The translations under genes and the position numbers were made by a program. Under the pieces are notes generated by a model. That model did not search any database. It was not told the origin of the DNA and was given only the letters and a program-made list of their open reading frames with translations. From assembly GCA_965261735.1 (NCBI GenBank), contig OZ253470.1, positions 608,001 through 672,000 of the forward strand: 64,000 nt of DNA, written 5' to 3'. The stretch comes from Alphaproteobacteria bacterium (GTDB taxonomy: Bacteria; Pseudomonadota; Alphaproteobacteria; SHVV01). Positions 10,028 through 60,726 of the stretch are shown one piece after another; position 1 is the stretch's first letter, and each line of letters starts with the position of its first letter.

Positions 10028-13000
10028 TTACCAGCGGATGACGCCGCGGAGCGCGATGCCGTGCTCGGCGTCGTCGTTGGCGGCCTCGCTGCGGGTGCCT
10101 TCGAGGTTGATCTCGAAGCCGGGATCGCCGCGCCGCGCCGAGGTCAGGCGCCAGCCGAGCCGGTAGTCGCGCCCGGTCTCCGTGAGCCCGACGCCGAGAT
10201 GCGGCGTGCCGGTGAAGCCGCCGTCGAACATCGCGATGCCGTAGCCCAGCTCCGCCTCCAGACGGCCCGCGCTTGCGGTCGTGTCGCCGTTGTCGTTGGC
10301 GGCGAGGCCGGCCAGGGTCTCGCGGCCCAGCAGCGCCTCCATGCCGCCGGTCGGCGAGCCGCCCCAGGACTGGCGCAGCGTCAGCGCGAGCCCCCGGTCG
10401 GTCGACGGCCGCGGGTCCCAGGCGAGGGAGGCGCTCGCGCCCCATTCGCGGAAGCCCGGCGCCTCGTGCGCAACCAGCCCGCGCGCCTTCAGGTCGAGCG
10501 CGATACCCTGCTTCGGCGCCGCGAAGGCGAGCCCGCCGCCGAGGTCGACACCAAGGCCGGTCTCGGCGTCGCCGCCGTCCAGCCGCACGCCGATCTCGAA
10601 TGACGGCGTCAGCACCATCCCCGCGCCATCGCCGCCGGGCGCAAAGCGCCGCGAGCCCTCGATCCCGGTGCGCACCAGCCACACGTCGGCGGTCGCCGCC
10701 GCGAGGTTGCCGCCCTTGGCGTCCTTCGTTGCCTCCGACGCGGTGCGGGTGAAGCGCGCATCGCCCTTCAGCGCCAGCGCCAGCCCGCCCTCCGGCGGTG
10801 GCGTCAGCACCTCGCCCCGCATCCCGGCCGCGCCCATGGCCATCGTGAGGTCGGCCGTGAAGGGACTCTCGCCCCCGGGCGTCAGCTTGAGCTCGCCCGC
10901 GCCATAGCCGGCCGCCGCCCAGGCCGAGAGCCGGTCGGTCAGCCTCAGCCCGGCATAGGGCCAGACACCGGTCAGCGTCGCCTCGACCTCGCCCGAGCAG
11001 CGGCTGGGCCCGCGGTAGCCGTCGGCGTTGGTGTCGGTGGCGGTTGGGTCGCAGTTTCCGCCCTCGCGGTAGCCGCCCGTGCCGCGGGCATGGCCGATCG
11101 CCAGCCCCGCCGTCCAGCGCTCTGCCGCCCAGTCCGCGCCCATCAGCCCCGTGGTGACCTCGCCGTCGAGCGTGAGGTCGCCCTCGCGGCCGTCGAAGCG
11201 CGAGATCGCGCCCCGGCCCCACAGCGCGGCATAGCCGCCGGCCTCGGCCGAGCCGCCGGTCAGCGCGAACGACGTCCCGGTCAGGAAGTCGCGCCCGGTC
11301 AGCGCCCGCGACTGCACGAGGTCCGCGCGTTCCGGACCCTCGCCCGGAGCACGCCATTCGCCATCGGCCCCGGCATGCGCCATCCAGTCCCGGATCGCCG
11401 TCATCGCCTCCCGGTCCGAAGCGTCGGCGTTGTCGTCGGCAGCCGCCTTCGCGGTGTCGTTGGCGCCGTCCCAGGACGGCAGCGCCTGGCCCGCCAGCGT
11501 CGCCCGCGCGCCCGCCGTGCGCGGTGCCGTGAGCCGCGCCTCCACCGCCTCCAGCACCTGGTCCGTCACCGTGCGCCCGAAGCGCGCCAGCCACGCCGCC
11601 GGTATCAGGTCCGTGTTCTCGATGGTGCCCGTCGCGACCCCGTCCGCGATCACCGCACCCGTCGCCGCCGAGAGCCGCAGCGTCAGCGTCTCCTCGCCCT
11701 CGTCATGGGCGTCGTCGAGCACCGGCACCGAGACCGTCTTCGCCGTCTCGCCCGCGGCGAAGGTCAGCGTCCCGCTCGTGGCCGTGTAGTCCGAGCCCGC
11801 CGTCGCGCTGCCGTCGGCCGTCGCATAGGCCACCGCCACCGGCGCGCGCGACGCCCGGCTCAAGGTCACCGCAAAGTCCAGCGTCGCGTCCGACGCCTCG
11901 CGCACCCGCGCATCCGCCACCGAGAGCGCCACCGGTCCCAGCACCGTCGTCGAGATCGTCGCCGACAGTGCCCGCCCGTCGCCGGTGCACACCGCCCCGG
12001 CGGTGCCGCAGGCGCGCCCGCCCGCGAGCGTCACCCTCACGTCGCCAAGCGAACCCGGCTTGACCGTCACCTCCCACAGGTCGTGGCGACCGTCCACCCG
12101 CTTCGCCTTCTTCACGCTCCCCCCGGACACCGACAACGCCTGGTCGCGGAACCTCCGGAAGCCGATCGAGATGTCCTCGCTGAACGCGATCCTGAGCTTG
12201 AACGCCGTCTTCCCGTCATGCTCATGGGGCGCCTCCACGAAGCTCGCCGTCAGCGGCACGACCACCGGTTCGACCGCGGGGCCGGCCACCGTCGCCGCCG
12301 GCGTGTTGGCGAGCTGCCGCCGGTCCCCGTCCCGGGTGCAGATCGCCCCGGAGACCGCGCACTCGCGCCCCGCCGCCAGCGTGACCGTCACATCGCCCTC
12401 GCCGTCGGGCTCGACCGTGATCCGCCACAGGTCGTGGCGCCGGTCCACCCGGCGCGCCCCGGTCACGGCGCCCCCGTCCACCGTGAACGCATCGTCGCGC
12501 ATCGACCGGAAGCCGATCCCGATCTCTTCGCTGAACGCCATCCGGAAGTGGAATTCTTCCTCGCCGTCATGCGCCTCAGGCAGGCCCTCGAATGCCGCCG
12601 TCAGCGGCACCGGGTCCGGACCCTCGACCGTCGTCGCGATCCCTTCCGACAGCGAACGCCCGTCCTCCGTGCAGATCGCCCCCGGCTCGTCGCACGGACG
12701 CCCCCCCTCGATCCGCATCGTCAGGTCGTCGTCCGAGCCCGGCTCGATCTCGAACTCCCACACGCGCTCGCCGTCTTCCTGTCCGCCACTCGAACGGCCC
12801 GCCGCACCTCCGCCCGGCCGGTTGTCCACCTGGCGCACCGACGTCACCCGGCCGCCCTCGACCTTCACTCCGTGCTCGCCGACATTCTCCGGGCTCTCCT
12901 CGATCGCCTCGCTGAACGCCACCCGAACCTTGACCCGGCCCGAGCCGTCGTGGTGCTCCGGCGGCGACACGAACCGCGCCTTCAGCGGATCGTCCGAGCG

Positions 13001-16000
13001 GCCGGCGCCGCTCTCCAGCACCAGCACCGTCGCCGTCGGCAGCGGGTAGGCCTCGAAGTCGTAGTTCGACTGCTCGTTGCCCTCCGAATCCGTCGTCGTG
13101 CCCGATGCGTCGTGGGCGAGCTCCGCCGTTCCGGACGCTGAGAACACGACGACCACCGTCACCGTCTGGCGCCGGAACCAGTTCTCCTTGGTAAACCGCA
13201 GCGCCGCCGGCGTCGCGACCACCCCGGCCGTGTCGGAACTCACCTCTATCGTCAACGGGTTGTCGGCGGTGATCCTGAAGTCTGGCGCCGCCATCAGGCG
13301 CACCGGATAGGTCACGCTGTCCCCCGCCGCGACCTCCAGGGTCACCTCGCCCTCGCCGCCCGCCACCTGGAGCTTATGGCGGCCCACCTGGTCTATTCGC
13401 AGATTCGTCAGATTCGGCAGCGCCTCGAACTCGTCGTAGGGCAACGAGCTCAGCGACGGGTTCTTCTGTAGTTCCAGTGTCTTCAGAGAGTGCAGGTCAG
13501 CGAACACCCCGGCCGGCAGCGAACGAAGCCGGTTCCTGTCCAGCTCCAGCGTTTCCAGCGCCGCCAGCCCGTCGAACACCCCGGCCGGCAGCGAGCGAAG
13601 CCTGGTGTCCCTCAAGGACAGCCGCTCGAGGTTCACCAGCCCCTCGAAGTCGCCGCTCCGCAGGCTGATCGTGAACGCCGAATCCGTGCTCGGGTTGCGG
13701 CCCAGGTCGAGCGACTTCAGTTGCGCCAGATGCGTCTCGTTCACGTCGCCGCAGCGGCCCTCGAAGCTATGCCGGTGCTTCAGCAGCTCCAGGATGCGGC
13801 CGCGGACGTACACCGTGCGGTTGCAGATGCTGCTGATGCTGACCAGGTCGTTGTCGAGAATGGTCAGGGTCACGTCGCCGGGGTCCGTCACGCCCTCGAT
13901 GGACGCCGAGCCGGACACCGTCACCACCTGGTTCGACTCGGGGTCGCCGTCGTCGACCGGCGCGATCGTCACCGTCCCGCTGCTCGCGGTCGCGTTCGCG
14001 GCGAAGCGCAGCGCCCGGTTCGTACTCAGCTCGAAGTCGTCGTCCGTCGCCGGGGCCACCGGACTCGCCGACACCGTCACCGTGAAGGCGGTCGCCGAGG
14101 CCGGCGACACCGTCGCCGTCACCGTGACGGCGCCCGCGTCCTCCTCGACCTCGCCGTCCGCGTCGCCCAGATGCAGCGTCACCTCCGGCGGCTCGTCCGG
14201 CTCGACCGCGGACAGCGAGCCGTCCACCTTGTGGCCGGACTGCTGGCCGAGCGCGGCATGGGTGAGGTCCGCCTCCACGTCCGTGGTCTCGCGCGTGATC
14301 GTGCCGTTCTGGGGGTCCCCGTTGCGGTTGCCGACCAGCGTCCGGTCCTGGTCCCCGATCCAGATGCCGTTGTCGTCCTCGTCGGCGGCCAGCACGGTGT
14401 AGCCGAACACCAGCGTCGCCGTGCCCGACCCGCGCACCAGCGGCGCGCGCTTGCGGCCGGCCACGGACAGCACGAAGTCCGTGCCGGTCGTGGCGGTCAC
14501 CGCCTCGCTGAACGTCACCGAGACCTCGATCGTCTCGCCCGCCCCGTAGGTGTCCGTCGCCGCCGCCGGGGTGGAGGTCACCGCCACATCGTCGATCGTC
14601 GGCGCCGTGGCCGCCGTGGCCCGCGTCACCGTCACCGTGTAGGTCTCGGTGGTGATGGTGTCCGCAGCCGTCACCTTCACCTTGATGACGTTCTCGCCCT
14701 CAGCCAGCGTCACCTGGTGGCCGTTCACCCCGGTGTCCGCATCGTCGAGCGTCGCGTCGTCCCCGTCCAGATAGTCGATCATCGCGCCGGTGTCGTTCTT
14801 CGTCGCCGTCACCGTCACCTCGGTGACGGTGCTCGCCACCATCGCCGTGTAGGTGGTGGTGCCCGACACGAAGGTCACCAGGTCCGACCCGCCGCCGGTC
14901 ACCGTCAGCCCGCTCAGCGTCGCGTCCGACGACTGGGTCCCGGTGACGGTGGCGTCGTCGGGGTCGGAGGGCTCCGACGTGCCCGCGGCGTTGATCGCCG
15001 ACACCCGGTAGTGCCGCGTGTCGCCGACCGCCAGCCCGGTATGCGAATAGCTCGTGTCGGCGGTGTCGGTGTCGGCGACGCGGTCGCTCCAGCTCCCCGC
15101 GCTGCCGTCCGTCGAGACCTCGATCCTGTAGCCGGTCACCGCGCGCCCGCCGTCCGATGCCGGCGCGGTCCAGGCGAGGTCGATCTGCGTGCCGCTCGCC
15201 GTCGCCCTCAGCCCGGTCGGCGTGCCCGGCGCGGTGGCCCGCACCAGGCGCACCTCGACCGTGTCGCCGTGCGACCAGCCGGGGTTATTGACGCCGTCGA
15301 GCCTCAGGGTAGGGAGCACGGGGTCGTCGATCTCGAAGGTAACCGGGCCGAGATGCAGGTTGAAAAACCCGGTGCCGAGACTGGTGTCTAGAAGGAACAC
15401 CATTGACGTGACGCTCCCCCGGTAATAGAGCCCATCAACCTTGACGGTGGTCCCGTCGCCGGGGTCGAAGGTGGTCGGGGTGAGCGCGCCGAATGGAGTG
15501 CCTTCAATCAGGGCACGGTAGCCAATTAAAGTGTTTAGCGCCTCCGCCGTCATCTCTGCGCTCCACAGGACGGTCCCGTGGATGGTGGCCGGCACGGCGT
15601 GGTGGGCGGCGGTCCCGGTGGTGGCGCTGTCGGGCGCCGAGGCGGGCGACGTGCCGTTCACGTTGATCGCCGAGACCCGGTAGTGCCGGGTGTCGCCGCT
15701 GGACAGCCCGGAGTGGCGGTAGTCGGTGTTCGTGGACTCGGTGTCGGCGACGCGGTTGCTCCAGCTCCCCGTGCTGCCGTCCGTCGAGACCTCGATCTTG
15801 TAGCCGGTGATGGCGGAGCCGCCATTGTTGTCGGGCGCGGTCCAGGCGAGGTCGATGGCGGTCGCGCCGAACGCGGTCGCCGTGAGCGCCGTGGGCGCGC
15901 CCGGGGCCGCCACCGCCGTGGAATTGTTCACCACCGCGGGAACGCCGTCCTCGCCGGTGGTGAAGGAGGCGGCGTCGTTTCCGGCGGCGTCCTGGATGGC

Positions 16001-19000
16001 GGACGCGTCGTCGCCGGAGGTCGGGTCGGTGTAGATAACGGTGACGGTCTGACCCTGGTATATGAGGCGATCCAAGCTTTGCAACTGGACCCGATCCGGA
16101 GTGGCGCTCGTGATCGCAACGCTGCCCACCACGATGGACGCGCCGTCGGCGCTGACCGAGAAGGCGCTCGCGGGTGGCCTCGCTGCCGCCGACGTGTCCA
16201 GGTTCTCGCTAAAATTCAGTACGATTTCGTCGCCGGCGATGGCCGCGGTCGCACTGCTGGGCGTCGGCGGGGTGATGTCCACCTCGGAGTTGTTGACGAC
16301 CGCCGCGACGCTCTTTTCTCCGGTGGTGAAGTTGGCGACCAGTTTATTGCTGGTGGACCCGATGGCTTCGCTGCCGGCGTCGGACCGGTCGTAGCTGACG
16401 ATGACCGCCAGATTTTCCACGATCGGGTCCGACATCGTGAGTGTCGCGGTAATCCCGGAAACGGCGAAGTCCGTGGTCTGGCTCTCCGTGCCGTCGACGG
16501 TCACGGTGAACGCGCCTCGAATCACGGACGAGAAGGCCGTCGGGAAATCAAGATCGGCGCTGAACGTCAGCACGACGGTGGCTCCGTCCGCCGGCACCGC
16601 CGCCGCGCTCAGCTTGGGCAGCGTGACCAGCGAGTTGTTAATAACGGAGACGTTGGAGAAGGAACTCGCGTCGACCCCGTCGATGTTCTGGATCGCGTTG
16701 ATGTCGTTGCCGGTGGTGGGGTCTCTGTACGCCAGCCTGACGGTCTCATTGTCCCCGATCAGGGGGGAGAGACCGCGCAGTTCTATGGAGTCGCTTGAGA
16801 CGTGGTGTACGCTGCCGACAGTCACGGGCGATCCGCCGGCGGTGACGGTAAACGCGCTGGTCGGCGGAAGCATGGTGCTGACGTCCTCGCTGAAAGACAT
16901 ATATAACCTGGCGCCGTCGTTGCGAACCTGAGCGGTCTCGCGCGTGGGCCGCGGCGTCGTCAGGCTGCCGTTCACCTTGTGGCCGGACTGCTCGCCGCGC
17001 TGGCTATGGGTGAGGTCCGCCGCCACGCCCGTGGCCACGCTCGTGATCGTGCCGTTCTGGGGATCCCCGTTGCGGTTGCCGACCAGCGTCCGGCTCTGGT
17101 CCCCGATCCAGATGCCGTCGTCGTCGCTGTCCCCGGCCAGCACGGTGTAGCCGAACACCAGCGTCGCCGTGCCCGACCCGCGCACCAGCGGCGCGCGCTT
17201 GGCCCCGGCGACGGACAGCACGAAGTCCGTGCCGGTCGTGGCGGTCACCGCCTCGCTGAAGGTCACCGTGACCTCGATCGTCTCGCCCTCCCCGTAGGTG
17301 TCCGTCGCCGCCCGCGGGGTGGAGGTCACCGCCACCTCGGTAATCGTGGCCTGCGCCACCGCCGAATTGTTGTCCACCGCGGGCACCCCGTCCTCGCCGG
17401 TGGTGAAGGAGGCGACGGGCAGGGCTTCCGCGTCGTTCGTTGTTAGGCCGACGCTGTCCACGGGCTTCGCGTAGCTGAGGACCACCGCCTGGCCCGTGGC
17501 GATCGGCGACGGGAGAAGGAACCCGATGCTCTGGTCGCCGCCCCCGAACTGGAGGTTGCCCACGCCGTGTCCGACCCCGTCGACCGTGAGCGAGAACAGA
17601 GCCGCGAACCCAAGCGGGTTGTTGATCTGCTTGTCGAACTCGATGTTGAGGACAGTGCCGGACGCGTTCACCGTCGCGCTCGTGACCGTGGCCGGCGCCA
17701 CCGTCGAATTGTTGTCGACCGCGGGCACCCCGCTCGCGCCGGTGGTGAAGTCGACGACCTCGTTGCCGTCGGCGTCGTCGAGGGCATTCGTGCCGGCGGC
17801 GGACCGGTCGTAGCTGACGACGACGGCCTGGTCCTTCGCGATCTTGGACGACAGGTTGATCTGCAGGCCGCTGCTGCCGTCCTTCGCGAGGCCCGAAATC
17901 TCCACCGTGTCGCCGTCGGCGGTGACCGAGAAGGCATCCTTGAGCGCCGCCGGGATGGTCGCCGGAAGGTCGAGGTCCTCGCCGAAAGCGAGTACGATGG
18001 CATCGCCGGACGACGTCACCGTCGCGCCGGTGAGCTCGGGCGGGCTGGTGTCCACCTCGGAGTTGTTGACGACCGCCGGGACGCTGTTTTCTCCGGTGGT
18101 GAAGTTGGCGACCAATATCTTCCTGCCGGTCCCGAGGGCTTCGCGGCCGGCGGCGGACCGGTCGTAGCTGACGATGACCGCCCGATTTTCCCCGATCGTG
18201 TCCGACATCGTGAGTGTCGCGGTGGCCCCGGAAACGGCGAAGTCCGTGGTCTGCCTCTCCGTGCCGCCGACGGTCACGGTTAACGCATTTCGAATCGCGG
18301 ACGAGTAGGCCGGCTGGAAAATAAGAAGAGTCCGGTCGAACGTCAGCGCGACGGTGGCTCCGTCCGCCGGCACCGCGGCCGCGCTCAGCGTGGGCACCGT
18401 GACCACCGAATCGTTAACAACGACGTTGGAGAAGGAACTCGCGTCGGTCCCGCCGGTGTCCTGGATCGCGTTGGTGTCATCGCCGGTGGTGGGGTCGGTG
18501 TACTCCAACGTGACGGTCTGACCCTGTGCGATCACGGGGGAGAAATCGGTCAGATCCAGGCCCCGGAGGTTTGTCTGCAAGCTTATGCTGCCGATAGTCA
18601 CGGGCGATCCGGCGGCGGTGAGGGTAAACGCGCTGGTCGGCGGCAAGATGTCGCTGAGATCCTCGTTGACAAATAACCAGAGCGTGTTGCCGTCTCCGCG
18701 AACATTAAAGGCCGTGGGCGTGGGCCGGCCGGTGATCGCCTTGAGGGAGAGGCTGACGTCGGTGCCGGCAGACCAGCTGAGGCCGGTATTGGCCCAACCA
18801 ACGGACCGGTCGGTCGACGAAACCGTCCCGTTCGCCCAAACGAACTCGTCGGTGCCTACGACCAGTGTGAGATCGCTCACGGCCTCCGGCGGGATTGTCT
18901 TGTTCAGGGCGATGTGAAGGTCGCGGGTGCTGCCGCCTCTTGGCTGGGTGAATATTTCGTCGATGGTGTAATCGATACCGTCATGGGTAAAGGTACGGTC

Positions 19001-19417
19001 GGACAACGAACCAGTCCCCGCGGGCTGGCTGTACCCTTGGAGATTGAGGCTAAAATTCTCCGTTGTCATGTCGGCCGACCAGATTTGGGTCGTGGTCTGG
19101 GCCTGCGCGGGCGGCGCGAGGGCGAGGCCGGCCACCAGCACGATTGCCGTGAGCCCGGCGGCGGCGAGGACGGCGCGCCGTCCTGAGCGGACAAGGCCGC
19201 GCAGCCGGCCGGCGGCGGAATAGGTCTCTGCGGAAGGACGGCCGCCCCGGCGGGGCGGCAGGCGGTCAGGCGGCGATGGCGGGTCGGCTTGCTCCCGCGC
19301 CCGAGGCGCAGTCATGCGCTCGGCGCTCGGCGCTCGGCGCTCGGCGCTCGGCGCTCGGCGCTCTATATTAAGGGTCGCACAGACAACTTCCAACCACTTC
19401 GCACAATTCGTACCCAT
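10028..19417 (-). CDS. Giant modular autotransporter-like adhesin (3129 aa)
   Basis: Extended signal peptide (..LALAPPAQA|Q), SwmB-like repeats, 2 FN3, cadherin-like sandwich, LRRs (LRSLPAGVFDGL), 3 Cys-containing repeats, Calx-beta, C-terminal beta-barrel-like region ending in W. Confidence 0.88.
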   Translation of the reverse strand: MGTNCAKWLEVVCATLNIERRAPSAERRAPSAERMTAPRAREQADPPSPPDRLPPRRGGRPSAETYSAAGRLRGLVRSGRRAVLAAAGLTAIVLVAGLALAPPAQAQTTTQIWSADMTTENFSLNLQGYSQPAGTGSLSDRTFTHDGIDYTIDEIFTQPRGGSTRDLHIALNKTIPPEAVSDLTLVVGTDEFVWANGTVSSTDRSVGWANTGLSWSAGTDVSLSLKAITGRPTPTAFNVRGDGNTLWLFVNEDLSDILPPTSAFTLTAAGSPVTIGSISLQTNLRGLDLTDFSPVIAQGQTVTLEYTDPTTGDDTNAIQDTGGTDASSFSNVVVNDSVVTVPTLSAAAVPADGATVALTFDRTLLIFQPAYSSAIRNALTVTVGGTERQTTDFAVSGATATLTMSDTIGENRAVIVSYDRSAAGREALGTGRKILVANFTTGENSVPAVVNNSEVDTSPPELTGATVTSSGDAIVLAFGEDLDLPATIPAALKDAFSVTADGDTVEISGLAKDGSSGLQINLSSKIAKDQAVVVSYDRSAAGTNALDDADGNEVVDFTTGASGVPAVDNNSTVAPATVTSATVNASGTVLNIEFDKQINNPLGFAALFSLTVDGVGHGVGNLQFGGGDQSIGFLLPSPIATGQAVVLSYAKPVDSVGLTTNDAEALPVASFTTGEDGVPAVDNNSAVAQATITEVAVTSTPRAATDTYGEGETIEVTVTFSEAVTATTGTDFVLSVAGAKRAPLVRGSGTATLVFGYTVLAGDSDDDGIWIGDQSRTLVGNRNGDPQNGTITSVATGVAADLTHSQRGEQSGHKVNGSLTTPRPTRETAQVRNDGARLYMSFSEDVSTMLPPTSAFTVTAGGSPVTVGSVHHVSSDSIELRGLSPLIGDNETVRLAYRDPTTGNDINAIQNIDGVDASSFSNVSVINNSLVTLPKLSAAAVPADGATVVLTFSADLDFPTAFSSVIRGAFTVTVDGTESQTTDFAVSGITATLTMSDPIVENLAVIVSYDRSDAGSEAIGSTSNKLVANFTTGEKSVAAVVNNSEVDITPPTPSSATAAIAGDEIVLNFSENLDTSAAARPPASAFSVSADGASIVVGSVAITSATPDRVQLQSLDRLIYQGQTVTVIYTDPTSGDDASAIQDAAGNDAASFTTGEDGVPAVVNNSTAVAAPGAPTALTATAFGATAIDLAWTAPDNNGGSAITGYKIEVSTDGSTGSWSNRVADTESTNTDYRHSGLSSGDTRHYRVSAINVNGTSPASAPDSATTGTAAHHAVPATIHGTVLWSAEMTAEALNTLIGYRALIEGTPFGALTPTTFDPGDGTTVKVDGLYYRGSVTSMVFLLDTSLGTGFFNLHLGPVTFEIDDPVLPTLRLDGVNNPGWSHGDTVEVRLVRATAPGTPTGLRATASGTQIDLAWTAPASDGGRAVTGYRIEVSTDGSAGSWSDRVADTDTADTSYSHTGLAVGDTRHYRVSAINAAGTSEPSDPDDATVTGTQSSDATLSGLTVTGGGSDLVTFVSGTTTYTAMVASTVTEVTVTATKNDTGAMIDYLDGDDATLDDADTGVNGHQVTLAEGENVIKVKVTAADTITTETYTVTVTRATAATAPTIDDVAVTSTPAAATDTYGAGETIEVSVTFSEAVTATTGTDFVLSVAGRKRAPLVRGSGTATLVFGYTVLAADEDDNGIWIGDQDRTLVGNRNGDPQNGTITRETTDVEADLTHAALGQQSGHKVDGSLSAVEPDEPPEVTLHLGDADGEVEEDAGAVTVTATVSPASATAFTVTVSASPVAPATDDDFELSTNRALRFAANATASSGTVTIAPVDDGDPESNQVVTVSGSASIEGVTDPGDVTLTILDNDLVSISSICNRTVYVRGRILELLKHRHSFEGRCGDVNETHLAQLKSLDLGRNPSTDSAFTISLRSGDFEGLVNLERLSLRDTRLRSLPAGVFDGLAALETLELDRNRLRSLPAGVFADLHSLKTLELQKNPSLSSLPYDEFEALPNLTNLRIDQVGRHKLQVAGGEGEVTLEVAAGDSVTYPVRLMAAPDFRITADNPLTIEVSSDTAGVVATPAALRFTKENWFRRQTVTVVVVFSASGTAELAHDASGTTTDSEGNEQSNYDFEAYPLPTATVLVLESGAGRSDDPLKARFVSPPEHHDGSGRVKVRVAFSEAIEESPENVGEHGVKVEGGRVTSVRQVDNRPGGGAAGRSSGGQEDGERVWEFEIEPGSDDDLTMRIEGGRPCDEPGAICTEDGRSLSEGIATTVEGPDPVPLTAAFEGLPEAHDGEEEFHFRMAFSEEIGIGFRSMRDDAFTVDGGAVTGARRVDRRHDLWRITVEPDGEGDVTVTLAAGRECAVSGAICTRDGDRRQLANTPAATVAGPAVEPVVVPLTASFVEAPHEHDGKTAFKLRIAFSEDISIGFRRFRDQALSVSGGSVKKAKRVDGRHDLWEVTVKPGSLGDVRVTLAGGRACGTAGAVCTGDGRALSATISTTVLGPVALSVADARVREASDATLDFAVTLSRASRAPVAVAYATADGSATAGSDYTATSGTLTFAAGETAKTVSVPVLDDAHDEGEETLTLRLSAATGAVIADGVATGTIENTDLIPAAWLARFGRTVTDQVLEAVEARLTAPRTAGARATLAGQALPSWDGANDTAKAAADDNADASDREAMTAIRDWMAHAGADGEWRAPGEGPERADLVQSRALTGRDFLTGTSFALTGGSAEAGGYAALWGRGAISRFDGREGDLTLDGEVTTGLMGADWAAERWTAGLAIGHARGTGGYREGGNCDPTATDTNADGYRGPSRCSGEVEATLTGVWPYAGLRLTDRLSAWAAAGYGAGELKLTPGGESPFTADLTMAMGAAGMRGEVLTPPPEGGLALALKGDARFTRTASEATKDAKGGNLAAATADVWLVRTGIEGSRRFAPGGDGAGMVLTPSFEIGVRLDGGDAETGLGVDLGGGLAFAAPKQGIALDLKARGLVAHEAPGFREWGASASLAWDPRPSTDRGLALTLRQSWGGSPTGGMEALLGRETLAGLAANDNGDTTASAGRLEAELGYGIAMFDGGFTGTPHLGVGLTETGRDYRLGWRLTSARRGDPGFEINLEGTRSEAANDDAEHGIALRGVIRW
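19317..19363. repeat. Heptamer tandem repeat (CGCTCGG)6 + CGCTC in the adhesin 5' region
   Basis: Read directly; encodes ERRAPSAERRAPSAER on the minus strand. Confidence 0.97.
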
Positions 19418-22309: not shown

Positions 22310-23611
22310 TCAGGCGGCGCGGGTCGGCCGCCCCCGAAACTGCGCCGGGAACGCGAGAACCGATCTCGCCGCCCCGCTGTCCGCCGCCCCGCCGCGGACG
22401 TCCTCCGGCGCCGTGCCCGGCCGCCCCGGATACCCCGTCAGGATATCGGCCGCGAGGCTCTCCGAGATGCGTATCGCACCCTCCCGGACCCAGTCCCGGT
22501 CGAGATGCGCATAGCGCTCCGTCGTCTGCTCCTCCGAATGTCCGAGCAGGCGCCCGATCATCGGCAGGTTCTCGCCAAGCGCCAGCGCACGGGACGCAAA
22601 ACTGTGGCGGCAGTCATGGATGCGCGCGTCCTCGATCCCGGCAAGCTCGCAGACCACCCCCCACGCCTCGTCGATATTGCGCATCGGCCGTCCCTCGACC
22701 ATGCCCGGAATCACCCATGGACTGTCCGGCAGACGCGGGATGCTCTCCAGCACCCTTACCGCTCGCGGGGAAAGCGAGACCGTCCGCGGGCCCGTCTTGG
22801 TCTCCGGCAGCCGCAACTCGGCCGCCTCGAGATCCACCTGCTCCCAGCGCAGGTGCAGGATCTCGCGCTTCCGGCATCCAGTCAGGATCAGCAACCGGAT
22901 CGCCGCCACCGAGTAGGGCGACACGCGCCTGCAACCCGTCACTTCCCTCAGCGCCCGCCCGAGGCGCTGGAACTCGTCCGGCGTCAGGAACCGCTCGCGC
23001 TTGCGCTCGCGGTTCTTGACCACCAGTCCGCACGGATTGCTCGCCTCCGGGATCAGCCCCTTGTCCTCGGCCGCGTTGTAGATCCGCGACAGGGTCTCGA
23101 CCACCTTGTTCGCCATCACCGGCTTGTCCCGCAGCGCATGATGCAGTTCCGTCACCCGGGCATGGTCGACCGCCAGCGCCGGCAGCTTGCCGAGCCTCGG
23201 GATGAGATACTTGTCGACCACCGTGCGGTAGAGCCCGGCGGTCGCCGGCCGGCAGCGCACCGCGACGTGGTCCTCGAGATAGCGCCGGGCGATGTCCGCC
23301 ACCGTCGGCCCTTTCGCGAGCGTCGCCGACAGGGGCTCCGGCACCGGCTCCTCGCCCGCTTTGATCCGAGAGACGATGAGCGCCGCGCGCCGCCGCGCCT
23401 CCTCGGGCGAGATCACCCCGTGCGGCGCGACCGTCACCCGCTGCGCCGCCTTGCCCTTCGCGCGGGCCTGCGCGATGTAGACCTTGCGCCCCGACGGATA
23501 CACCCGCACCCCGAACCCGGGGAGCTCCCGGTCCCAGAACACCGTGTCCTTCTCGACCTTCAGCGCCTCCACCGTGCGCCGCGAGATCGTCTTCGTCCTG
23601 AACCTCGCCAT
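22310..23611 (-). CDS. Tyrosine recombinase/integrase 1 with arm-binding N-terminus
   Basis: FWDRELPGFGVRV, TGCRKRE, KTG, HDCRH, LGH..TTERYAH. Confidence 0.93.
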   Translation of the reverse strand: MARFRTKTISRRTVEALKVEKDTVFWDRELPGFGVRVYPSGRKVYIAQARAKGKAAQRVTVAPHGVISPEEARRRAALIVSRIKAGEEPVPEPLSATLAKGPTVADIARRYLEDHVAVRCRPATAGLYRTVVDKYLIPRLGKLPALAVDHARVTELHHALRDKPVMANKVVETLSRIYNAAEDKGLIPEASNPCGLVVKNRERKRERFLTPDEFQRLGRALREVTGCRRVSPYSVAAIRLLILTGCRKREILHLRWEQVDLEAAELRLPETKTGPRTVSLSPRAVRVLESIPRLPDSPWVIPGMVEGRPMRNIDEAWGVVCELAGIEDARIHDCRHSFASRALALGENLPMIGRLLGHSEEQTTERYAHLDRDWVREGAIRISESLAADILTGYPGRPGTAPEDVRGGAADSGAARSVLAFPAQFRGRPTRAA

Positions 23612-23624
23612 TCCCGAATCGCTC

Positions 23625-24815
23625 CTATGCCGCCTCGCCCTCGTCCCATGCGAAGATGTCGTCACCGATGCTGTCGCCCACCTTCGCCGCCGACGCCCTC
23701 TCGCCGTCCCGCGCGAGGTGTGCATACCGCGCGGTCGTCGAGAACTTCCTGTGCCCGAGGACCTCGCTGATCAGCGGGATTGCTTCGCCGATCGCCAGCG
23801 CGCGGGACGCATACGAATGTCTGCAATCGTGAATCCGCACATCGTCGAGACCCGCCCGCTTTCGCAGCCGCAGCCAGATGGCGTCGAGGTTCTTGAGATG
23901 GTCTCCGGGATTCTTGCCGGCGATGACCCAGGGGTTGCCCTCGATGCGCGGTATGCGCTCCAGCAGCCATTCCATCGCCGGCGTCAATATCACCCGCCGC
24001 GCGCCGGTCTTCCCGTCCCGGAGCAGCAGCTCGCCCGCGGTGCGGTCGATGTCGTCCCACCAGAGCGTGACGACCTCGTTCTTGCGGCAGCCGGTCAGGA
24101 TCAGCAGGCGAATCGCCGGGATCGCCGTCGGGAACACCGACCCGTCGGCTTCCGCCTCGTCCAGCACGCGAGCCAGCCGCCGGTACTCGTCCGCGGAGAG
24201 GAACCGCTCGCGCCGATACTCCTTATATCTGCGAATCGAGAGCGCCGGATTGCGCCTGGGCGGCGTCATCCCCCACGCCGCCGCGAGCTTGAACATCTTC
24301 GCCAGCACGTCCCGCGTCTGGTTCGCCTGGTAGGGCTTGTCGCGCATCTTGTGATGCAGCGCCGCGACGTGGCCCCGCTCGACCGCCGAGAGCGGCATGT
24401 GGCCGAACTCGGGCAGAATGTAGAGCCGGAGGATTCGCCCGAAGGTCTCGACCGTCCCCGGCCGGCAGTTCACCTCCAGATGCGCCTCGACATAGCGCTC
24501 CGCCAGGTCGGCCACCGTCGGCTCGGGCGCGGGCGGCTCCGGAAACGCCTCCTCGCCCTTCTTCAGGCGGTCGATGACCTCCGCGGCCACACGCCGTGCA
24601 TCCTCGACGGTGATATCGACCTTCCGGCCGATCGCCGCGCGCTTCAGCGCGCCGCCCGGCGCCCGCGCGTGAACCACATAGACCTTGCGCCCGCTGGCAT
24701 GGACCCGCACACCGAACCCGGTGAGGTCGCGGTCGTAGAACACCCGGTCGCCCCGTTCGACCGCGAGCGCCTCGACCACGCGCCTGCTCAGCTTGAGAGT
24801 GCTCTTTCGAGGCAT
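23625..24815 (-). CDS. Tyrosine recombinase/integrase 2 with arm-binding N-terminus
   Basis: FYDRDLTGFGVRV, TGCRKNE, KTG, HDCRH, LGH..TTARYAH. Confidence 0.93.
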   Translation of the reverse strand: MPRKSTLKLSRRVVEALAVERGDRVFYDRDLTGFGVRVHASGRKVYVVHARAPGGALKRAAIGRKVDITVEDARRVAAEVIDRLKKGEEAFPEPPAPEPTVADLAERYVEAHLEVNCRPGTVETFGRILRLYILPEFGHMPLSAVERGHVAALHHKMRDKPYQANQTRDVLAKMFKLAAAWGMTPPRRNPALSIRRYKEYRRERFLSADEYRRLARVLDEAEADGSVFPTAIPAIRLLILTGCRKNEVVTLWWDDIDRTAGELLLRDGKTGARRVILTPAMEWLLERIPRIEGNPWVIAGKNPGDHLKNLDAIWLRLRKRAGLDDVRIHDCRHSYASRALAIGEAIPLISEVLGHRKFSTTARYAHLARDGERASAAKVGDSIGDDIFAWDEGEAA

Positions 24816-25068
24816 GCGCCGCTCTCCCATCCCCCCGTGACCGAACGGACCGCCGCCCGGGTTTTCCGTCCCGCCCGTCCGGGCGCTGGGAATTCCGTGA
24901 ACACCCAGATACCAAACGGTGTGCAATGCCAGTGTATGAGAGTCCATCCGTGACGCAAATGCAAGCCCTAAGTAGGCTTTCTCAACCTCCGTAACCTATT
25001 GTGAATGATAGTATTAGACTACCCGATGTAGCACGGAAGCATCCGAACCTATCACCCTTTCAGAGTGC

Positions 25069-25260
25069 CATGATCTACGCCACTCGTTCGCTTCCCGCGC
25101 GCTGGCGCTCGGCGAGGGCTTGCCGATGATCGGCAAATTGCTCGGACACACGCAGGTCCAGACGACCGCTCGGTACGCCCATCTTGCCCGTGACACCGTC
25201 AAGGCATCCGCCGCGCGCATCGGAGACAGCATCGACCGAGATCTCGATGCCGCGGAATAG
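25069..25260 (+). pseudogene. C-terminal fragment of a third tyrosine recombinase
   Basis: Hand translation HDLRHSFASRALALGEGLPMIGKLLGHTQVQTTARYAHLARD...*; no integrase-like sequence upstream. Confidence 0.88.
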
Positions 25261-25724
25261 CGCAGCATCCGAGACCCCACAGATCGGAATGGCCTTTATC
25301 CACCGACCCGAAAATCCAAGAAACCCGCCGGCGTCAAAATCGGAATATCGTTAAACGGAGACATCTCCAGGAGGTCCCGATCGCCCGTAACCAGACAATC
25401 CGCTTCTCCCATCAGCGCCGTCTCGAGCAGCTTGTCATCATCCGGATCGCGACATCCGAGCTTCGCGCCAGCGATCGAAACCCATTCCGAGACCGCTTCG
25501 AGTTGAGCCAGATAAACCGCTCTGACTTCCCGGCCAACGTATCGGTCGAACTTCGGGCGATGGAAACGGCTTCGAAGCTCCTCGAACGTCTCGTCGGAAA
25601 ACAGCAGCACACCGTTCGCCGACCGCACCGCATCCACAACCGATGGGGTGGACGCCCCTCCCGACGGCATCGCGATGTGCCAGGTTGGCGGTGTTGTTAA
25701 CGCCAAGCGAGGAAGGGGGCGTCC

Positions 25725-26747
25725 ATGGAACAGGTTCACATGATCGGGATCGATCTGGCGAAGAACAGCTTTCAGCTGCACGGTGCGCGGGCGGATGGGT
25801 CGGTTGCGTTCCGCAAGAAGCTGAGCCGGGCGAAGCTGTTGGACTTTGTGGCTGCGCAGCCACGCTGCACGGTGGCGATGGAGGCGTGCGGCGGCGCGCA
25901 CCATTGGGGCCGGGAGATCGGCAGTCTCGGCCATGCGGTGCGACTGGTCCCACCGATCTACGTCAAAGCGTACGTCAAGCGGCAAAAGAACGACGCGTCG
26001 GATGCGGAGGCGATCTGCGAGGCGTCGTCGCGGCCGACCATGCGCTTTGTGGCTGTGAAGACGGAGGAACAGCAGGCTCGGGGCATGCTGTTCCGGACGC
26101 GCGATCTTCTGGTGCGCCAGCGCACCCAGACGATTAATGCGCTGCGCGGCCATCTAGCGGAGTTCGGTGTCATTGCCCCGCAGGGGCCGGCTCATGTCGG
26201 CCGGCTGGCCTCGGCGCTTGGGGGACCGGCTTCGAGGTTGCCGGAAGCGGTCCGCGAGCTGGCCGGCCTTCTGCTTGAGCAGATCGCCGGCCTCGATGCG
26301 AAGATTGCGGGCCTGGAGAGGGAGGTCCACGTGAGAGCACGGCAGGATGAGGAGGCGAGGCGCCTGATGAGCGTGCCGGGGATCGGGCCGATCAGCGCGA
26401 TGGCAATCCAGGCCTTCGCACCGCCGATGGAGAGTTTCCGGCGCGGCCGCGACTTCTCCGCTTGGCTCGGCCTCGTGCCGCGCCAGCACACGACCGGCGG
26501 CAAGCCGAAGCTGGGCAAGATATCGAAGATGGGCCAGCGCGATCTGAGACGGCTGCTGATCACAGGCGCGATGACTGTGGTCCGCTGGGCGGTTCGGCGC
26601 GGCGTGACGACGGACCCCTGGCTGGCCGGGATGCTGGCGCGCAAGCCGAGGATGCTCGTCGCGGTGGCGCTGGCCAACAGGATGGCGCGCATCGTCTGGG
26701 TGCTACTGACGAAGAAGAAGAGCTACCGGGCTCCCGCCACCGCCTGA
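25725..26747 (+). CDS. IS110 recombinase (DEDD)
   Basis: IGIDLAK, MEAC, KNDASDAEAI, WLGLVPRQHTTGGK, VAVALANR. Confidence 0.95.
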   Translation: MEQVHMIGIDLAKNSFQLHGARADGSVAFRKKLSRAKLLDFVAAQPRCTVAMEACGGAHHWGREIGSLGHAVRLVPPIYVKAYVKRQKNDASDAEAICEASSRPTMRFVAVKTEEQQARGMLFRTRDLLVRQRTQTINALRGHLAEFGVIAPQGPAHVGRLASALGGPASRLPEAVRELAGLLLEQIAGLDAKIAGLEREVHVRARQDEEARRLMSVPGIGPISAMAIQAFAPPMESFRRGRDFSAWLGLVPRQHTTGGKPKLGKISKMGQRDLRRLLITGAMTVVRWAVRRGVTTDPWLAGMLARKPRMLVAVALANRMARIVWVLLTKKKSYRAPATA

Positions 26748-27014
26748 GAGAACGGCGAAGTGCGGGAAGCCGTCGGGGATGTGGGCAGGACGGAGGACAG
26801 GTAAGGGCAAAGGTCAACGAGACCGGGTTGGGAAAACCAGCATCCGAACGGAGAGCTTTCAAGCTCGCGTAACCGATTTGGACCCAATCCGCGTATCTCC
26901 ATACGGGCCCGCGGCGTGTCATCTGCCGCATAGAGAGGCCGGACACACGACAGCACCTGACCGCATGCACCGAGCCGACCAAAAACTGCTTGCATCAACG
27001 GGGGCGTCCACACA
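26748..27014 (+). ncRNA. Putative bridge/seekRNA region of IS110 copy 1
   Basis: Segments matching target (CCGAACGG 26844-26851; GTAACCG 26869-26875) and donor junction (CTCCAT 26897-26902; ACACACGA 26943-26950) flank two hairpins. Confidence 0.75.
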
Positions 27015-27081
27015 CGTTCGGGGCGGCCCGTCCAGGCGAAACACCGCGCTGATCAGGACATTGGTGTCAAGAACAACGCGC

Positions 27082-27333
27082 TCAGCTTTCATCCGCCAGA
27101 AGCGTCTCCAGCCCAGCCGCCGTCAAGCCGTTCGCAGAGGCTTCCTCACCCAAGGCGTCCATCGTCATTGTCAGACGCTCCCAGGCGGCGCCGCGAAGCC
27201 GCTCATAGTGTTGCATCGACATCATCACGCCGACCGCCCTGCCATTCTTGGTCACGTGCACGGGCGCGCTCTGCGCTGCATCGAGCAAGTAGCCGAAGCG
27301 GTTCTTGGCGTCCCTGGCGGCAATCTTTCTCAT
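27082..27333 (-). CDS. Phd/YefM antitoxin
   Basis: MRKIAARDAKNRFGYLLDAAQSAPVHVTKNGRAVGVMMS; overlaps the toxin start. Confidence 0.9.
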   Translation of the reverse strand: MRKIAARDAKNRFGYLLDAAQSAPVHVTKNGRAVGVMMSMQHYERLRGAAWERLTMTMDALGEEASANGLTAAGLETLLADES

Positions 27334-27336
27334 AAG

Positions 27337-27369
27337 AGCCATAATAGCTAACATGGCTTCATTTTACAA
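27337..27369 (-). promoter_or_regulatory. TA promoter with palindromic operator
   Basis: Minus strand TTGTAA-N17-TATTAT ending 7 nt before the ATG (leaderless-like); palindrome AGCCAT-N10-ATGGCT at 27337-27358. Confidence 0.65.
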
Positions 27370-30133: not shown

Positions 30134-30178
30134 TTACTGCAGCGTCTTCATGTGGCTCCATATATCATCGTACATGAG
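30134..30178 (-). pseudogene. C-terminal tip of a second heme-oxygenase-like oxidase
   Basis: LMYDDIWSHMKTLQ* matches LMYDDMYRLVKAIQ* of the gene at 33159-33857. Confidence 0.65.
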
Positions 30179-31172
30179 TAACGCCCATGACCGCTACATG
30201 TAGGGTGCCGCCACTCTCCCGAGTAAAGCTCGGCATAGGTTGGAGCAGAGGTGTCGCCCGCGATGCCGAGCAATGAGCGGAAGGCGTTGAACGGGTAGAA
30301 CCGCCTGTTGAAGCGGAAGGTGAACTCGTTGAGGTAGGCTTGTAGGTGCTGGTGGCTAACGCCGTGGTGGATACCGATCAGCCACGTCTTCAGGTTGGCG
30401 AAAACCAGATGGATGATCGGCAGGTATTGCTCGGCAACCTCTGGATCACCACACTCGGCAACAGCGAAGTGCTCATAGCCGCGCTTACCGAGGCCAGCAT
30501 AGCCGCTCCAATCGTCAGTAACGATCAGCGATCCCGGCGCGACGGTGCTCTCGACGAACCCACAGAGCGACTCGGCGCTACGGTCGAGCACGACGGCGAG
30601 CCGAACGCGTCCGGCATAGCGTCCGTCTTTCCGGTTGTCGAGCTTGGTGCCCGGCTTTCGATGACGCACCTCGATGGCACAGGAGACGGGAACCTTGTGG
30701 TGAACACCACGGCCTTCCCCACGCGTTCGCCCGCCAACCCAGGTTTCGTCCATCTCAACATGGTTCTTGGGCTGTCCACCGATCCTGTCTTGGTTGGGCC
30801 GCACCATGCCCGAGCGGAGCTTGTGGAGAATTTGAAAGGCCGTCTCGTAGCGCGAAAGACCAAGTTGCCGCTGAAACTGCACGGCGGACATGCCGGGCGT
30901 CTGACTGGCGACCAGATAAGCGGCCCAGAACCAGACGTTCAGCGGAGTGTGGCTACGCTCCATCACTGTTCCCACCGTCAGCCCGGTGTTCTGGCGGCAC
31001 TTGCGGCAGCGCAGGACGCCAGGGCGGTTTTCAAAGTGGAACGGCTCTCCCGCCGTGCCGCAGTGCGGGCAGGCAAAGCCGTCTCCCCCAGCGGGCTTTC
31101 TCCAGGTAGGCGGCGCAGGCCGCATCATCGGGGAAAAGTCGCTGGAACTCGGGTAGCGAATGCGGGAATGGG
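30179..31172 (-). mobile_element. IS1595-family element copy A, both ends missing, frameshifted
   Basis: Near-identical to the other copies; CPHC zinc ribbon, DETWVGG, TDDW, YLNEFTFRFNRR; no TIRs. Confidence 0.88.
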
Positions 31173-31322
31173 AACCACAACTACCATGGCCGGCTCTACA
31201 TCTCCTGTCCCGACCCGAAGTGGCGGGCCCGCATCGCGGAGGTGTGTTACGAGGAAGGCACCGGCCGCCTCCACGCGGGCGGCATCTCGCACAACGAGCT
31301 CTATCTGCGCTACGGCGAGGCT
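31173..31322 (+). pseudogene. Inverted internal fragment of a second heme-oxygenase-like oxidase
   Basis: NHNYHGRLYISCPDPKWRARIAEVCYEEGTGRLHAGGISHNELYLRYGEA, paralogous to 33159-33857. Confidence 0.85.
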
Positions 31323-31324
31323 CG

Positions 31325-32259
31325 GTGTAGTTGCGAAAGTCGGCACCCTCGTCGACGAAACGCCGGCCTTCGGCGTTGACCATGATGCCGAAGGGATAGC
31401 TGTGTTTCTGAAAGCCGTCGCCGACCGCAAGATCGCCGAATTCCGGGGCGTTCATGTCCCACCCTACCGAATGGCAGCCCGACCAGTTGCCGTAGGGCAT
31501 GGCCCCGGCCTCGAGCGCCATGCGCAGGCCGTCTCCGGTGTTGAACCGCGTCCCGCGTACCCGGGCGAGCTCCCAGCCGGGGCCGAGATAGCGTGTGCGC
31601 CATTCGGTGTTGGCCTCGAAGCCGCCGCACGACAGAACCACCGCCTTGGCCTCGAGGTCCTGGGTCGTGCTCTCGCTGCGCAGGCGCACGCCGTGGACGC
31701 CGCCATCGTTGCACAGCAGGGCCTGCGCCCGTCCTTCATACAAGATGCGAATGCCGCGCTTTTCAGCCTGCGCGTAGAGGGCCTCGATGAGCCCCGGGCC
31801 GCCACCCCACGCCTCGACGGTGAGGCCGCCCCAGAACTTGAAGCGACCGTCCACCTTGAACGCCTGGCGCCCATACATCGGCGCGAATCGCACGCCGTTT
31901 GCGCGCATCCATTTCAGGGTCGAGAGACTTCGCGTGACCAGCAGTTCGGTGAGATCGGGATCGCACCGGAATTGCGTCACCCTCGACATGTCGTCGTAAT
32001 ACTGGTCGCTGGTGTAGGCGCCGAAGTCCGAGTTCTTCTGCTCCTCCTCGGAGAGATCGGGCATCAGCGCGAGCAGGTCCTCCACCCCCTCGTAGACGAC
32101 CCGCATCGCGCCGGCGGTGAACCGGCTGTTACCGCCGCGCTCCTCTTCCGGCGCGCGCTCCAGCACAACCACCTCGGCGCCATGCTCGCGCGCAGCCAGG
32201 GCCGCGCAGAGGGCGGCGTTGCCGCCGCCAATGACCACGACGTCGCAGGCTTGAGACAT
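31325..32259 (-). pseudogene. FAD-dependent oxidoreductase, TcuA/CobZ-like, 3'-truncated
   Basis: DVVVIGGGNAALCAA, RGGNSRFT, GGFEAN, RGTRFNTGDG, GRRFVDEGADFRNYT, then a break. Confidence 0.85.
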
Positions 32260-47736: not shown

Positions 47737-48122
47737 CGGACATGCCGGGCGTCTGACTGGCGACCAGATAAGCGGCCCAGAACCAGACGTTCAGCGGAGT
47801 GTGGCTACGCTCCATCACTGTTCCCACCGTCAGCCCGGTGTTCTTGGCGGCACTTGCGGCAGCGCAGGACGCCAGGGCGGTTTTCAAAGTGGAACGGCTC
47901 TCCCGCCGTGCCGCAGTGCGGGCAGGCAAAGCCGTCTCCCCAGCGGGCTTTCTCCAGGTAGGCGGCGCAGGCCGCATCATCGGGGAAAAGTCGCTGGAAC
48001 TCGGGTAGCGAATGCGGGAATGGGAGATCGGCGCGGTCGAGAACATCCATGGCGCGCTCCCCTATATCCGGGTTGCGCCCATTCTAGCCCTAGTGGGTGT
48101 GGGTGTAAACCGGATAAGCAAG

Positions 48123-48137
48123 GTTCATTTTATGTTC
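48123..48137 (+). promoter_or_regulatory. Alphaproteobacterial LexA (SOS) box
   Basis: GTTC-ATTTTAT-GTTC upstream of a umuD-like remnant. Confidence 0.75.
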
Positions 48138-52499: not shown

Positions 52500-52882
52500 G
52501 AGTGTGGCTACGCTCCATCACTGTTCCCACCGTCAGCCCGGTGTTCTGGCGGCACTTGCGGCAGCGCAGGACGCCAGGGCGGTTTTCAAAGTGGAACGGC
52601 TCTCCCGCCGTGCCGCAGTGCGGGCAGGCAAAGCCGTCTCCCCAGTGGGCTTTCTCCAGGTAGGCGGCGCAGGCCGCATCATCGGGGAAAAGTCGCTGGA
52701 ACTCGGGTAGCGAATGCGGGAATGGGAGATCGGCGCGGTCGAGAACATCCATGGCGCGCTCCCCTATATCCGGGTTGCGCCCATTCTAGCCCTAGTGGGT
52801 GTGGGTGTAAACCGGATAGGAAAGACTTATTGAACCCGTTTTACTATGAAGGCTCAATCTCCCGCGCCGAACAACACTCTGG

Positions 52883-60578: not shown

Positions 60579-60622
60579 GGTTGCGAGGGTTGGATTTGAA
60601 CTAACGACCTTCAGGTTATGAG
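60578..60622 (-). other. Degenerate 3' half of tRNA-Met (CAT), likely island att site
   Basis: Reverse complement CTCATAACCTGAAGGTCGTTAGTTCAAATCCAACCCTCGCAACCA; 5' half absent. Confidence 0.8.
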
Positions 60623-60726
60623 TTTGCGTAAGAGTGAAGACGACAATTGCAGTCATACGTGCGCACGGACGCGCTGATGCGTGATAATTGGCTATTTTAC
60701 AAAGGCTTTGTGGGCGGTGCAAAAGC

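Follow-up and report, generated by a model that had tools for sequence, protein, structure and literature searches.

What does it mean for a mobile element to end exactly at the active-site codons of another recombinase gene? The question is posed by a 64,000-nt stretch of DNA from an Alphaproteobacteria bacterium (the window; genome positions 608,001-672,000 on the single 5.03-Mb contig of a genome labeled G000). Here two tyrosine integrase genes, IntA and IntB, stand in tandem at the right edge of an integrative and conjugative element (ICE), and the DNA beyond that edge opens with the HDLRH codons of a third integrase gene. We conclude, at a probability of roughly 85%, that the window holds the right end of an F-type ICE whose integration module recombines site-specifically with the HDLRH codons of other integrase genes. 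The argument turns on the following features, given in window coordinates (aa, amino acids; att, attachment site).

1-25068, no strand: right-hand 25 kb of the ICE (Pfam matches, blastn of the split gene, junction sequences)
22310-23611, minus strand: IntA, a 433-aa tyrosine integrase with Arm-DNA-bind_3 (PF13356) and Phage_integrase (PF00589) domains
23625-24815, minus strand: IntB, a 396-aa tyrosine integrase beside the att site, with Arm-DNA-bind_3 (PF13356) and Phage_integrase (PF00589) domains
24816-25068, plus strand: P arm of attR, the AT-richer non-coding end of the ICE (GC content, motif search, conservation in relatives)
25069-25085, plus strand: attR core, the HDLRH-like 15-mer CATGATCTACGCCAC plus TC
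25069-25260, plus strand: displaced C-terminal tail of the target integrase, 63 codons and a TAG stop at 25258-25260

The split integrase gene and the ends of the element

IntA and IntB are co-oriented on the minus strand, and each joins an N-terminal arm-binding domain to a C-terminal catalytic domain, which makes them arm-binding (lambda/P4-type) tyrosine integrases. They are 46% identical and share the stretches TGCR, HDCRH, LGH and RYAHL, which from family motifs we take to be the catalytic Arg, His-x-x-Arg, His and Tyr; HDCRH (aa 332 in IntA, aa 329 in IntB) stands where the family usually has HDLRH. IntB homologs of 396 aa start at the same Met as IntB, and an IntA ortholog lies directly behind IntB in 7/7 relatives with readable DNA at that place. 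By tblastn of the three integrase sequences, G000 holds approximately 13 full-length paralogs and many fragments.

Between IntB and the junction, GC content drops to 56.9% over 24816-25068 and to 47.9% over the last 169 nt (24900-25068), against 65.7% for the whole window. The motif TCCGTRA occurs on the plus strand of this arm at 24894, 24947 and 24988, a local cluster of three copies in 95 bp; over the whole window it is not enriched (8 found versus 12.8 expected from shuffles). A relative, L019, with an IntB only 79% identical and with intergenic DNA that has otherwise diverged, retains two of the copies at the same places (-190 and -137 from the junction); one TCCGTGT is present in the P' arm. 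We regard the TCCGTRA copies as candidate arm-type integrase-binding sites. No second copy of the right arm was found in G000.

The right junction reads ...CACCCTTTCAGAGTGC/CATGATCTACGCCAC... (slashes mark boundaries) or, by codon, ...CAGAGTGC/CAT GAT CTA CGC CAC TC/GTTCGC.... From 25069 the plus-strand frame reads HDLRHSFASRAL..., beginning with HDLRH. The 63-codon tail aligns with the final part of the Phage_integrase profile (positions 130-169 of 172, E 5.6e-8) and includes ARYAHL, the stretch with the catalytic Tyr. Crossover is likely to fall within the last 8 nt of the attR core (25078-25085, CGCCACTC).

The element itself is approximately 85.5 kb long (genome 547,540-633,085). It encodes a TrwC relaxase (E 4.6e-83) that also carries AAA_30 and UvrD_C_2 domains, a TrwB_AAD_bind coupling protein (E 1.2e-141) and an F-type set of mating-pair genes (TraC_F_IV, E 2e-82; TraG_N, TraH, TraN, TraU, TraV, TrbI/TraB, TraE and TraL), along with SSB, a Toprim protein, RadC and a strawberry-notch-type helicase. 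TraV, TraB/TrbI, TraE and TraL fall within the window, as do an IS21 insertion sequence (IS; istA/istB), a LysR regulator, a pyridoxal phosphate-dependent enzyme, IntA and IntB. With a relaxase and a coupling protein, a mating-pair formation system, an integrase at an edge, and attL and attR at its ends with a shared core in a disrupted target, the element is an ICE.

Its left end lies 60.5 kb outside the window, where the middle part of an integrase gene (genome 547051-547537, plus strand) ends in HDLRH codons. The intact G000 gene closest to the integrase fragment in the window lies at genome 4,430,787-4,431,959. By blastn, positions 810-1295 of this paralog match genome 547,051-547,536 (90.3%), and positions 1282-1469 match window 25069-25256 (90.4%). 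The two pieces, both on the plus strand and separated by 85.5 kb, share no more than the HDLRH codons and are therefore consecutive parts of one gene. The left junction reads ...ATT CAC GAC CTC CGT CAC AG/TTGTGCATCTCT..., and the 15-nt HDLRH block is kept at both junctions. At its 5' end the N-part has in turn been cut by other DNA, and an IS1595-family element lies nearby. G000 also contains a second, decayed ICE left end at genome 4,354,565 (82% identical over 237 nt), which adjoins a 20-codon integrase remnant that again ends in HDLRH. As a separate observation, this remnant and 9 nt of the decayed end are duplicated 125 kb away (4,479,970), with other DNA following.

Much of this anatomy had been anticipated in a preliminary description made from the window's letters. 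Domain and motif searches bore out its two co-oriented integrases, both with HDCRH, and all three TCCGT(G/A)A repeats; the GC values agree with its AT-richer att-like segment, and the profile match with its oppositely oriented integrase fragment running from HDLRH to a stop. The transfer genes, relaxase and coupling protein confirm the ICE label, and the far end expected beyond the left edge of the window, beside a matching integrase part, was found at genome 547051-547537. The shared core proposed around GTGCCA did not hold: the core falls instead within the HDLRH codons, at CGNCAY plus two bases.

The same description had offered an alternative modeled on SSV1, a split integrase that excision would rebuild; attP would then lie within an integrase gene of the ICE itself, which integration would divide. 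The element is indeed flanked by the two halves of a single integrase gene. An SSV1-type provirus has the gene halves within its ends, whereas here they lie outside the element in target orientation, the N-part reading into the element from outside and the C-part reading away. The inside ends are integrase-like over only 15 nt and approximately 12 nt, with stop codons around, IntA and IntB are intact, and near-identical ends sit in different integrase genes. We reject the SSV1-like explanation, which retains next to no probability.

Under site-specific targeting, the module would comprise the tandem arm-binding tyrosine integrases IntB and IntA plus the AT-rich att arms, with IntB and/or IntA as the predicted cutters. 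Its target would be the DNA for the catalytic His-x-Leu-Arg-His motif in the P4-type integrase genes of other elements. attB has the form ...CAY GAY CTN CGN CAY (TC or AG) NTTYGC..., and the predicted attP the form ...CAGAGTGC CAT GAT CTA CGN CAY NN TTGTGCATCTCT...; crossover probably falls within the approximately 8 bp CGNCAYNN, made up of the Arg and His codons and the two bases after them. The putative attP is integrase-like over approximately 27 nt, and most of its differences from attB are at third codon positions, a pattern suggesting descent from an integrase gene, of which attP would be a short relic. Insertion would cut the catalytic Tyr off from the remainder of the target protein, whose upstream part ends ...HDLRH-SCASLSYSLAA-stop, and the integrase of the resident island would therefore be disabled while the ICE is in place.

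Recurrence of the junction in other genomes

The case from G000 alone would have been weak. We scanned for IntB in one genome per species plus 400 sampled genomes of the class, and counted IntB-clade loci at ≥66% identity with readable upstream DNA (n = 11). Eight of the 11 right ends show the same succession of arm, HDLRH-like 15-mer and integrase tail (the window, L018, L019, L020, L021, L022, L030 and L052). On the left, 8 distinct copies were found in four genomes, and 6/8 adjoin integrase codons ending in HDLR(H); at one of them (L037) the N-part of the integrase is complete (aa 7-342), and another is the decayed end in G000. At least six distinct target genes are represented. Arms are more alike than the tails they adjoin: 94% versus 74% identity between G000 and L020, and 92% versus 67% between L021 and L022. 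Another right end, L026, reads as an attP-type joint (CATGATCTACGGCAC TC TTGTGCA) that matches the predicted attP over 24 nt.

One further genome, G002, belongs to the same family and a different genus. Its right arm differs from that of G000 at 6 of 253 nt (98% identity) and its integrase tail at 14 of 187 nt (Fisher p 0.018), with homology ending 12 nt past the stop codon of the tail. The G002 left end also adjoins an integrase part, and its attL and attR share a perfect 8-bp repeat, CGCCATTC, over the Arg-His codons, with unlike sequence on both sides. The possibility that G002 carries the same ICE was considered and rejected: the relaxase between its ends is only 34% identical to that of the G000 ICE. 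Intact, unoccupied homologs of the target are present in G002, G001 and G000.

Sequencing-read data from four runs yielded contigs fragmented by the paralogs, none spanning the junction region from end to end; the usable pieces among the ends listed are an X2 end at 25078 and an X12 piece ending at 25083, and the lack of a circle joint in these contigs carries no weight. X2 contigs leave the window exactly before 25078 and continue as uninterrupted integrase sequence, reading ...CGTGCGCATTCACGACCTC directly before that position, which is the left-flank sequence over 19 nt only. The X2 contig end thus looks like an empty site, on 19 nt of evidence.

These data agree with the preliminary description, which had proposed that the ICE targets a conserved active-site sequence of related integrase genes: when homologous junctions are tabulated as it suggested, 8/11 right ends (with at least six targets) and 6/8 left ends lie in integrase genes. 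The outcome it had set against its own proposal, a far end in a tRNA- or guaA-type site with junctions outside integrase genes, is not what we found.

Recurrence also bears on the view that the junction is debris, an integrase truncated by unrelated events in an IS-ridden genome with an ICE end adjacent by chance. The abundance of IS1595-family ends (at least hundreds among the matches listed), several integrase tail fragments with other breakpoints and the 5' cut in the N-part are all in keeping with such a history. Chance would also have to place the matching N-part, 85.5 kb away on the same strand, at the same codons, and then repeat the junction at 7 more loci, in other genomes and in different targets, whose tail identities of 67-80% argue against copies of one ancestral junction. 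We consider debris highly improbable.

A second possibility is RecA-type homologous recombination or gene conversion between integrase paralogs, the ICE carrying a relic and no dedicated targeting. The similarity of the putative attP to integrase genes could serve such exchange, as could the approximately 13 full-length paralogs and many fragments in the genome, and chimeric integrases do occur: P0012 switches partner at approximately aa 271, and the IntB of L020 (4001-4813) is truncated at the same point. P0012 is IntB-like up to that residue and then continues as another paralog, whose tail is the target tail of L020. These two cases suggest homologous exchange between integrase paralogs besides site-specific events. 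As an account of the junctions, RecA-type exchange is improbable: attP and attB are alike over only approximately 27 nt, with mismatches; the breakpoint is identical to the base in targets 67-80% alike; the perfect 8-bp repeat of G002 lies between unlike sequences; and the arms are AT-rich with conserved short repeats, like integrase att sites.

Several observations weigh against site-specific targeting, or narrow what it can claim. Three of the 11 right ends have no integrase codons adjoining: L051 is cut by an IS, L025 gives no clear context, and in L026 an IS-end-like stretch lies further on. Two of the eight left ends (L036 and L041) adjoin other DNA, and most left-end N-parts are 5'-truncated. 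Other integrase tail fragments in G000 break elsewhere, at aa 12, 18 and 25. What G000 and G002 have in common is the integration module, not the whole ICE. The 8-nt crossover of G000 differs between attL (CGTCACAG) and attR (CGCCACTC) at 3 positions, which requires either tolerance of heterology or later change; the mismatch fits recombination across unlike overlaps with one parent's strand kept at each junction. The best intact matches of the two parts disagree (L008, 95.3%, for the N-part; L014, 94.2%, for the C-part), so a more complex history is possible. A group II intron with a reverse transcriptase gene (genome 547774-549701) interrupts the ICE 237 bp in from its left end and has a copy of 99.9% identity at 2,989,567-2,991,494; because the ICE carries this intron and IS insertions, it may no longer move. 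All the evidence is comparative; neither an excised circle nor an integration event was seen, and the L026 joint and the X2 contig end are no more than hints of excision.

The reach of the module was also probed outside the counted loci. Two further tandem integrase pairs in G000 (starting at 3380215 and 3243182, both HDLRH) have no integrase fragment upstream, so tandem arrangement alone does not imply an integrase target. IntB-like loci at 59% identity (L055 and L056) had no integrase fragment within 480 nt. Searching metagenome contigs with IntB returned only 5 distant relatives (42-49% identity) and no new junctions, and a plasmid collection gave nothing above 47% identity to IntB and no extrachromosomal attP.

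As to what the targets are, intact homologs of the split gene lie approximately 220 bp from a 34-nt 3' half of tRNA-Met, which identifies them as integrases of tRNA-Met-type islands. The genome has 12 copies of this 34-nt repeat, which lies upstream of IntC-type genes; only one copy is part of a whole tRNA-Met. At window 60588-60727, the same 34-nt half and approximately 106 nt of the usual IntC-type upstream DNA have no integrase behind them. A tRNA scan around 18 integrase loci found no tRNA gene closer than 1.5 kb to any of them. The distant IntB relatives L023, L024 and L054 (47-55% identity) adjoin tRNA 3' ends, and the integrase-targeting habit therefore looks derived from tRNA targeting.

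The apparently recoded motif, and other features of the locus

An element that lands in the HDLRH codons of integrase genes carries integrase genes of its own. We tabulated the motif in the best 120 matches to IntB and in 116 further matches to IntA. The IntB set comprises 78 HDCRH, 18 HDARH, 5 HDGRH, 2 HDVRH, 1 HDYRH and 12 HDLRH, with no motif in 4; the IntA set comprises 96 HDCRH, 9 HDARH, no HDGRH, 1 HDVRH, no HDYRH and 3 HDLRH, with no motif in 7. Leu is thus replaced by Cys, Ala, Gly, Val or Tyr in 104/116 IntB homologs and 106/109 IntA homologs. Among integrase-like sites of G000 as a whole, Leu is kept in 22/26, and the three Cys sites belong to IntA, IntB and the closest paralog of IntA. 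In the DNA, core position 8 carries T in 6/6 B arms and 9/9 P arms, and G or C in 11/11 of the elements' own genes.

This codon pattern is that expected if the elements avoid carrying their own target. Own genes would most likely be protected by recoding of the Leu codon (to TGC or GCC in this ICE, and to Gly, Val or Tyr codons in relatives), which would remove the T that never varies in either att arm. In a quickly built maximum-likelihood tree of 98 rows (every non-Cys protein, one in five of the Cys proteins, the G000 paralogs and three locus proteins), IntA and IntB occupy separate clades, each with Leu-bearing basal rows and neighbors, and the motif residue must change state at least 20 times.

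The non-Leu residue could instead be an inherited or functional feature of the proteins, concerned with catalysis or DNA contacts, an explanation that touches the self-immunity step only. Some tyrosine recombinases work without Leu at this position, Cre having Ala at its equivalent, and the dominance of Cys in both clades could reflect selection on the protein. Five different residues and at least 20 switches on the tree fit this explanation poorly, as do the loss of Leu in two separate clades with Leu-bearing basal rows and neighbors and the fact that the changes always remove the core position 8 T that is invariant in 15/15 att arms. We regard a protein-level cause as possible, with self-avoidance somewhat better placed.

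Strict self-immunity faces further difficulties. Leu is kept in 12 IntB-clade and 3 IntA-clade proteins, an IntB-like gene in L029 is itself cut at the motif site, as a protein-level cause would allow, and the tree is weakened by the sampling of every fifth Cys row and by the quick search. In L029, at 3985-4025, two integrase tails meet head-to-head across a perfect 30-bp palindrome, GGCGATTATTCCGGATTCGGAATAATCGCC; one tail is that of the cut IntB-like gene, and an intact IntA ortholog follows. The earlier idea that the ICE avoids self-insertion through its different motif accordingly fares unevenly: the non-Leu codons and missing T give it comparative support, and the cut gene of L029 runs counter to it.

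Extended further, the data would fit an "integrase hunter", a two-integrase module widespread in Alphaproteobacteria that lands in HxLRH codons, switches off the integrases of rival islands and escapes itself by recoding, in an arms race over a single codon; we give this broader picture an even chance. On this picture, the HxLRH codons would be the most conserved stretch of the module's own enzyme family and so a ubiquitous, host-neutral landing site, and the repeated exchange of Cys, Ala, Gly, Val and Tyr for one another would record that contest at one active-site codon.

Other features of the locus lie apart from this argument. Within the ICE, a 3129-aa open reading frame (ORF; window 10028-19417) encodes a predicted surface protein with internal repeats, whose C-terminal part looks, by eye, like an outer-membrane autotransporter barrel. 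Near-identical copies of an IS1595-family end, at least hundreds among the matches listed (e.g., genome 546700-546836; window 47989-48123 and 52691-52824), point to extreme IS expansion in G000. A 703-aa ORF at window 30148-32259 starts as a flavoprotein oxidoreductase-like sequence and, by eye, runs into IS1595-type transposase-like sequence; an IS copy has probably interrupted a gene there. Beyond the junction, an IS110-family element divides the gene for a PIN-domain (VapC-like) toxin (window 25296-27354), with the following parts by domain search.

25296-25700, minus strand: C-terminal part of the PIN toxin
25725-26747, plus strand: IS110-family transposase
26919-27092, minus strand: N-terminal part of the PIN toxin
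27082-27354: Phd/YefM antitoxin gene, intact

Comparison with known integration systems

Site-specific elements choose tRNA genes, the ends of housekeeping genes and, in few cases, genes of other mobile elements. Landing in the active-site codons of integrases would add a new target class, one that is conserved by protein function, present in many copies, carried from host to host by other elements and dispensable to the cell. Such targeting would provide a ready mechanism for locking resident islands and building nested composite islands, and the apparent recoding of the module's own genes would be a rare instance, open to test, of self being told from non-self in the DNA that encodes a catalytic motif. 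For annotation it carries a caution: an integrase tail fragment at the border of an island can represent an att site and not mere decay. Our literature search found no description of integration into integrase genes or of a recoded motif; target lists for genomic islands might bear on the matter.

Arm-binding (heterobivalent) integrases of the P4/SXT type insert at tRNA gene 3' ends or in prfC, guaA or dusA. The module resembles them in domain make-up, in having an integrase gene at the edge beside an AT-rich arm with short repeats, and in the short identity block common to attL and attR. It differs in that its target is the catalytic-motif codons of other integrase genes and not a tRNA or housekeeping gene, in that the target gene is disrupted and not rebuilt, and in that two paralogous integrases, both without the Leu codon of the motif, always stand in tandem. 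In themselves, the enzymes and the element are ordinary: arm-binding tyrosine integrases and an F-type ICE.

Tn916 and CTnDOT are known for loose target choice. Unlike theirs, the site surrounding the crossover here is highly specific, and the overlap in G002 is identical. Their integrases are reported to tolerate unlike overlap sequences (PMC2817482). The 3/8 difference between the attL and attR crossovers of G000 is what would be expected if heterology were likewise tolerated.

In SSV1-type archaeal integrases, attP lies inside the integrase's own gene. Those elements too, once integrated, have an integrase gene divided between their two ends; in the G000 ICE it is the gene of the target that is split, and the halves lie outside the element.

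Two-recombinase systems include XerC/XerD and TnpA/TnpB of Tn554, in which, as here, two paralogous tyrosine recombinase genes are conserved side by side. Unlike those pairs, IntA and IntB both have arm-binding domains, and their joint action would be a conjecture from gene pairing. The core half-sites CAYGAYCTN and NTTYGC are not symmetric by eye, and two different subunits would suit them. Integrative and mobilizable elements (IMEs) with tandem recombinases exist, in the portion of the report consulted (PMC5704250).

The nearest parallels in lifestyle are elements that target other elements. In the passages of the reports consulted, helper-embedded phage-inducible chromosomal islands (PICIs), which are satellites, integrate in prophage late genes (PMC10111431), streptococcal IME_oriT integrate in the nic site of ICE oriT (PMC5704250), and ICEs with serine-integrase triplets integrate in traG of another ICE (PMC4701971); these passages name no integrase gene as a target. 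As far as they go, all three kinds resemble the module in being site-specific, in using a conserved functional site and in blocking the target's function until excision. Unlike any of them, the module of the G000 ICE draws its target from its own enzyme family, which creates a problem of self-targeting whose apparent solution is visible in the sequences.

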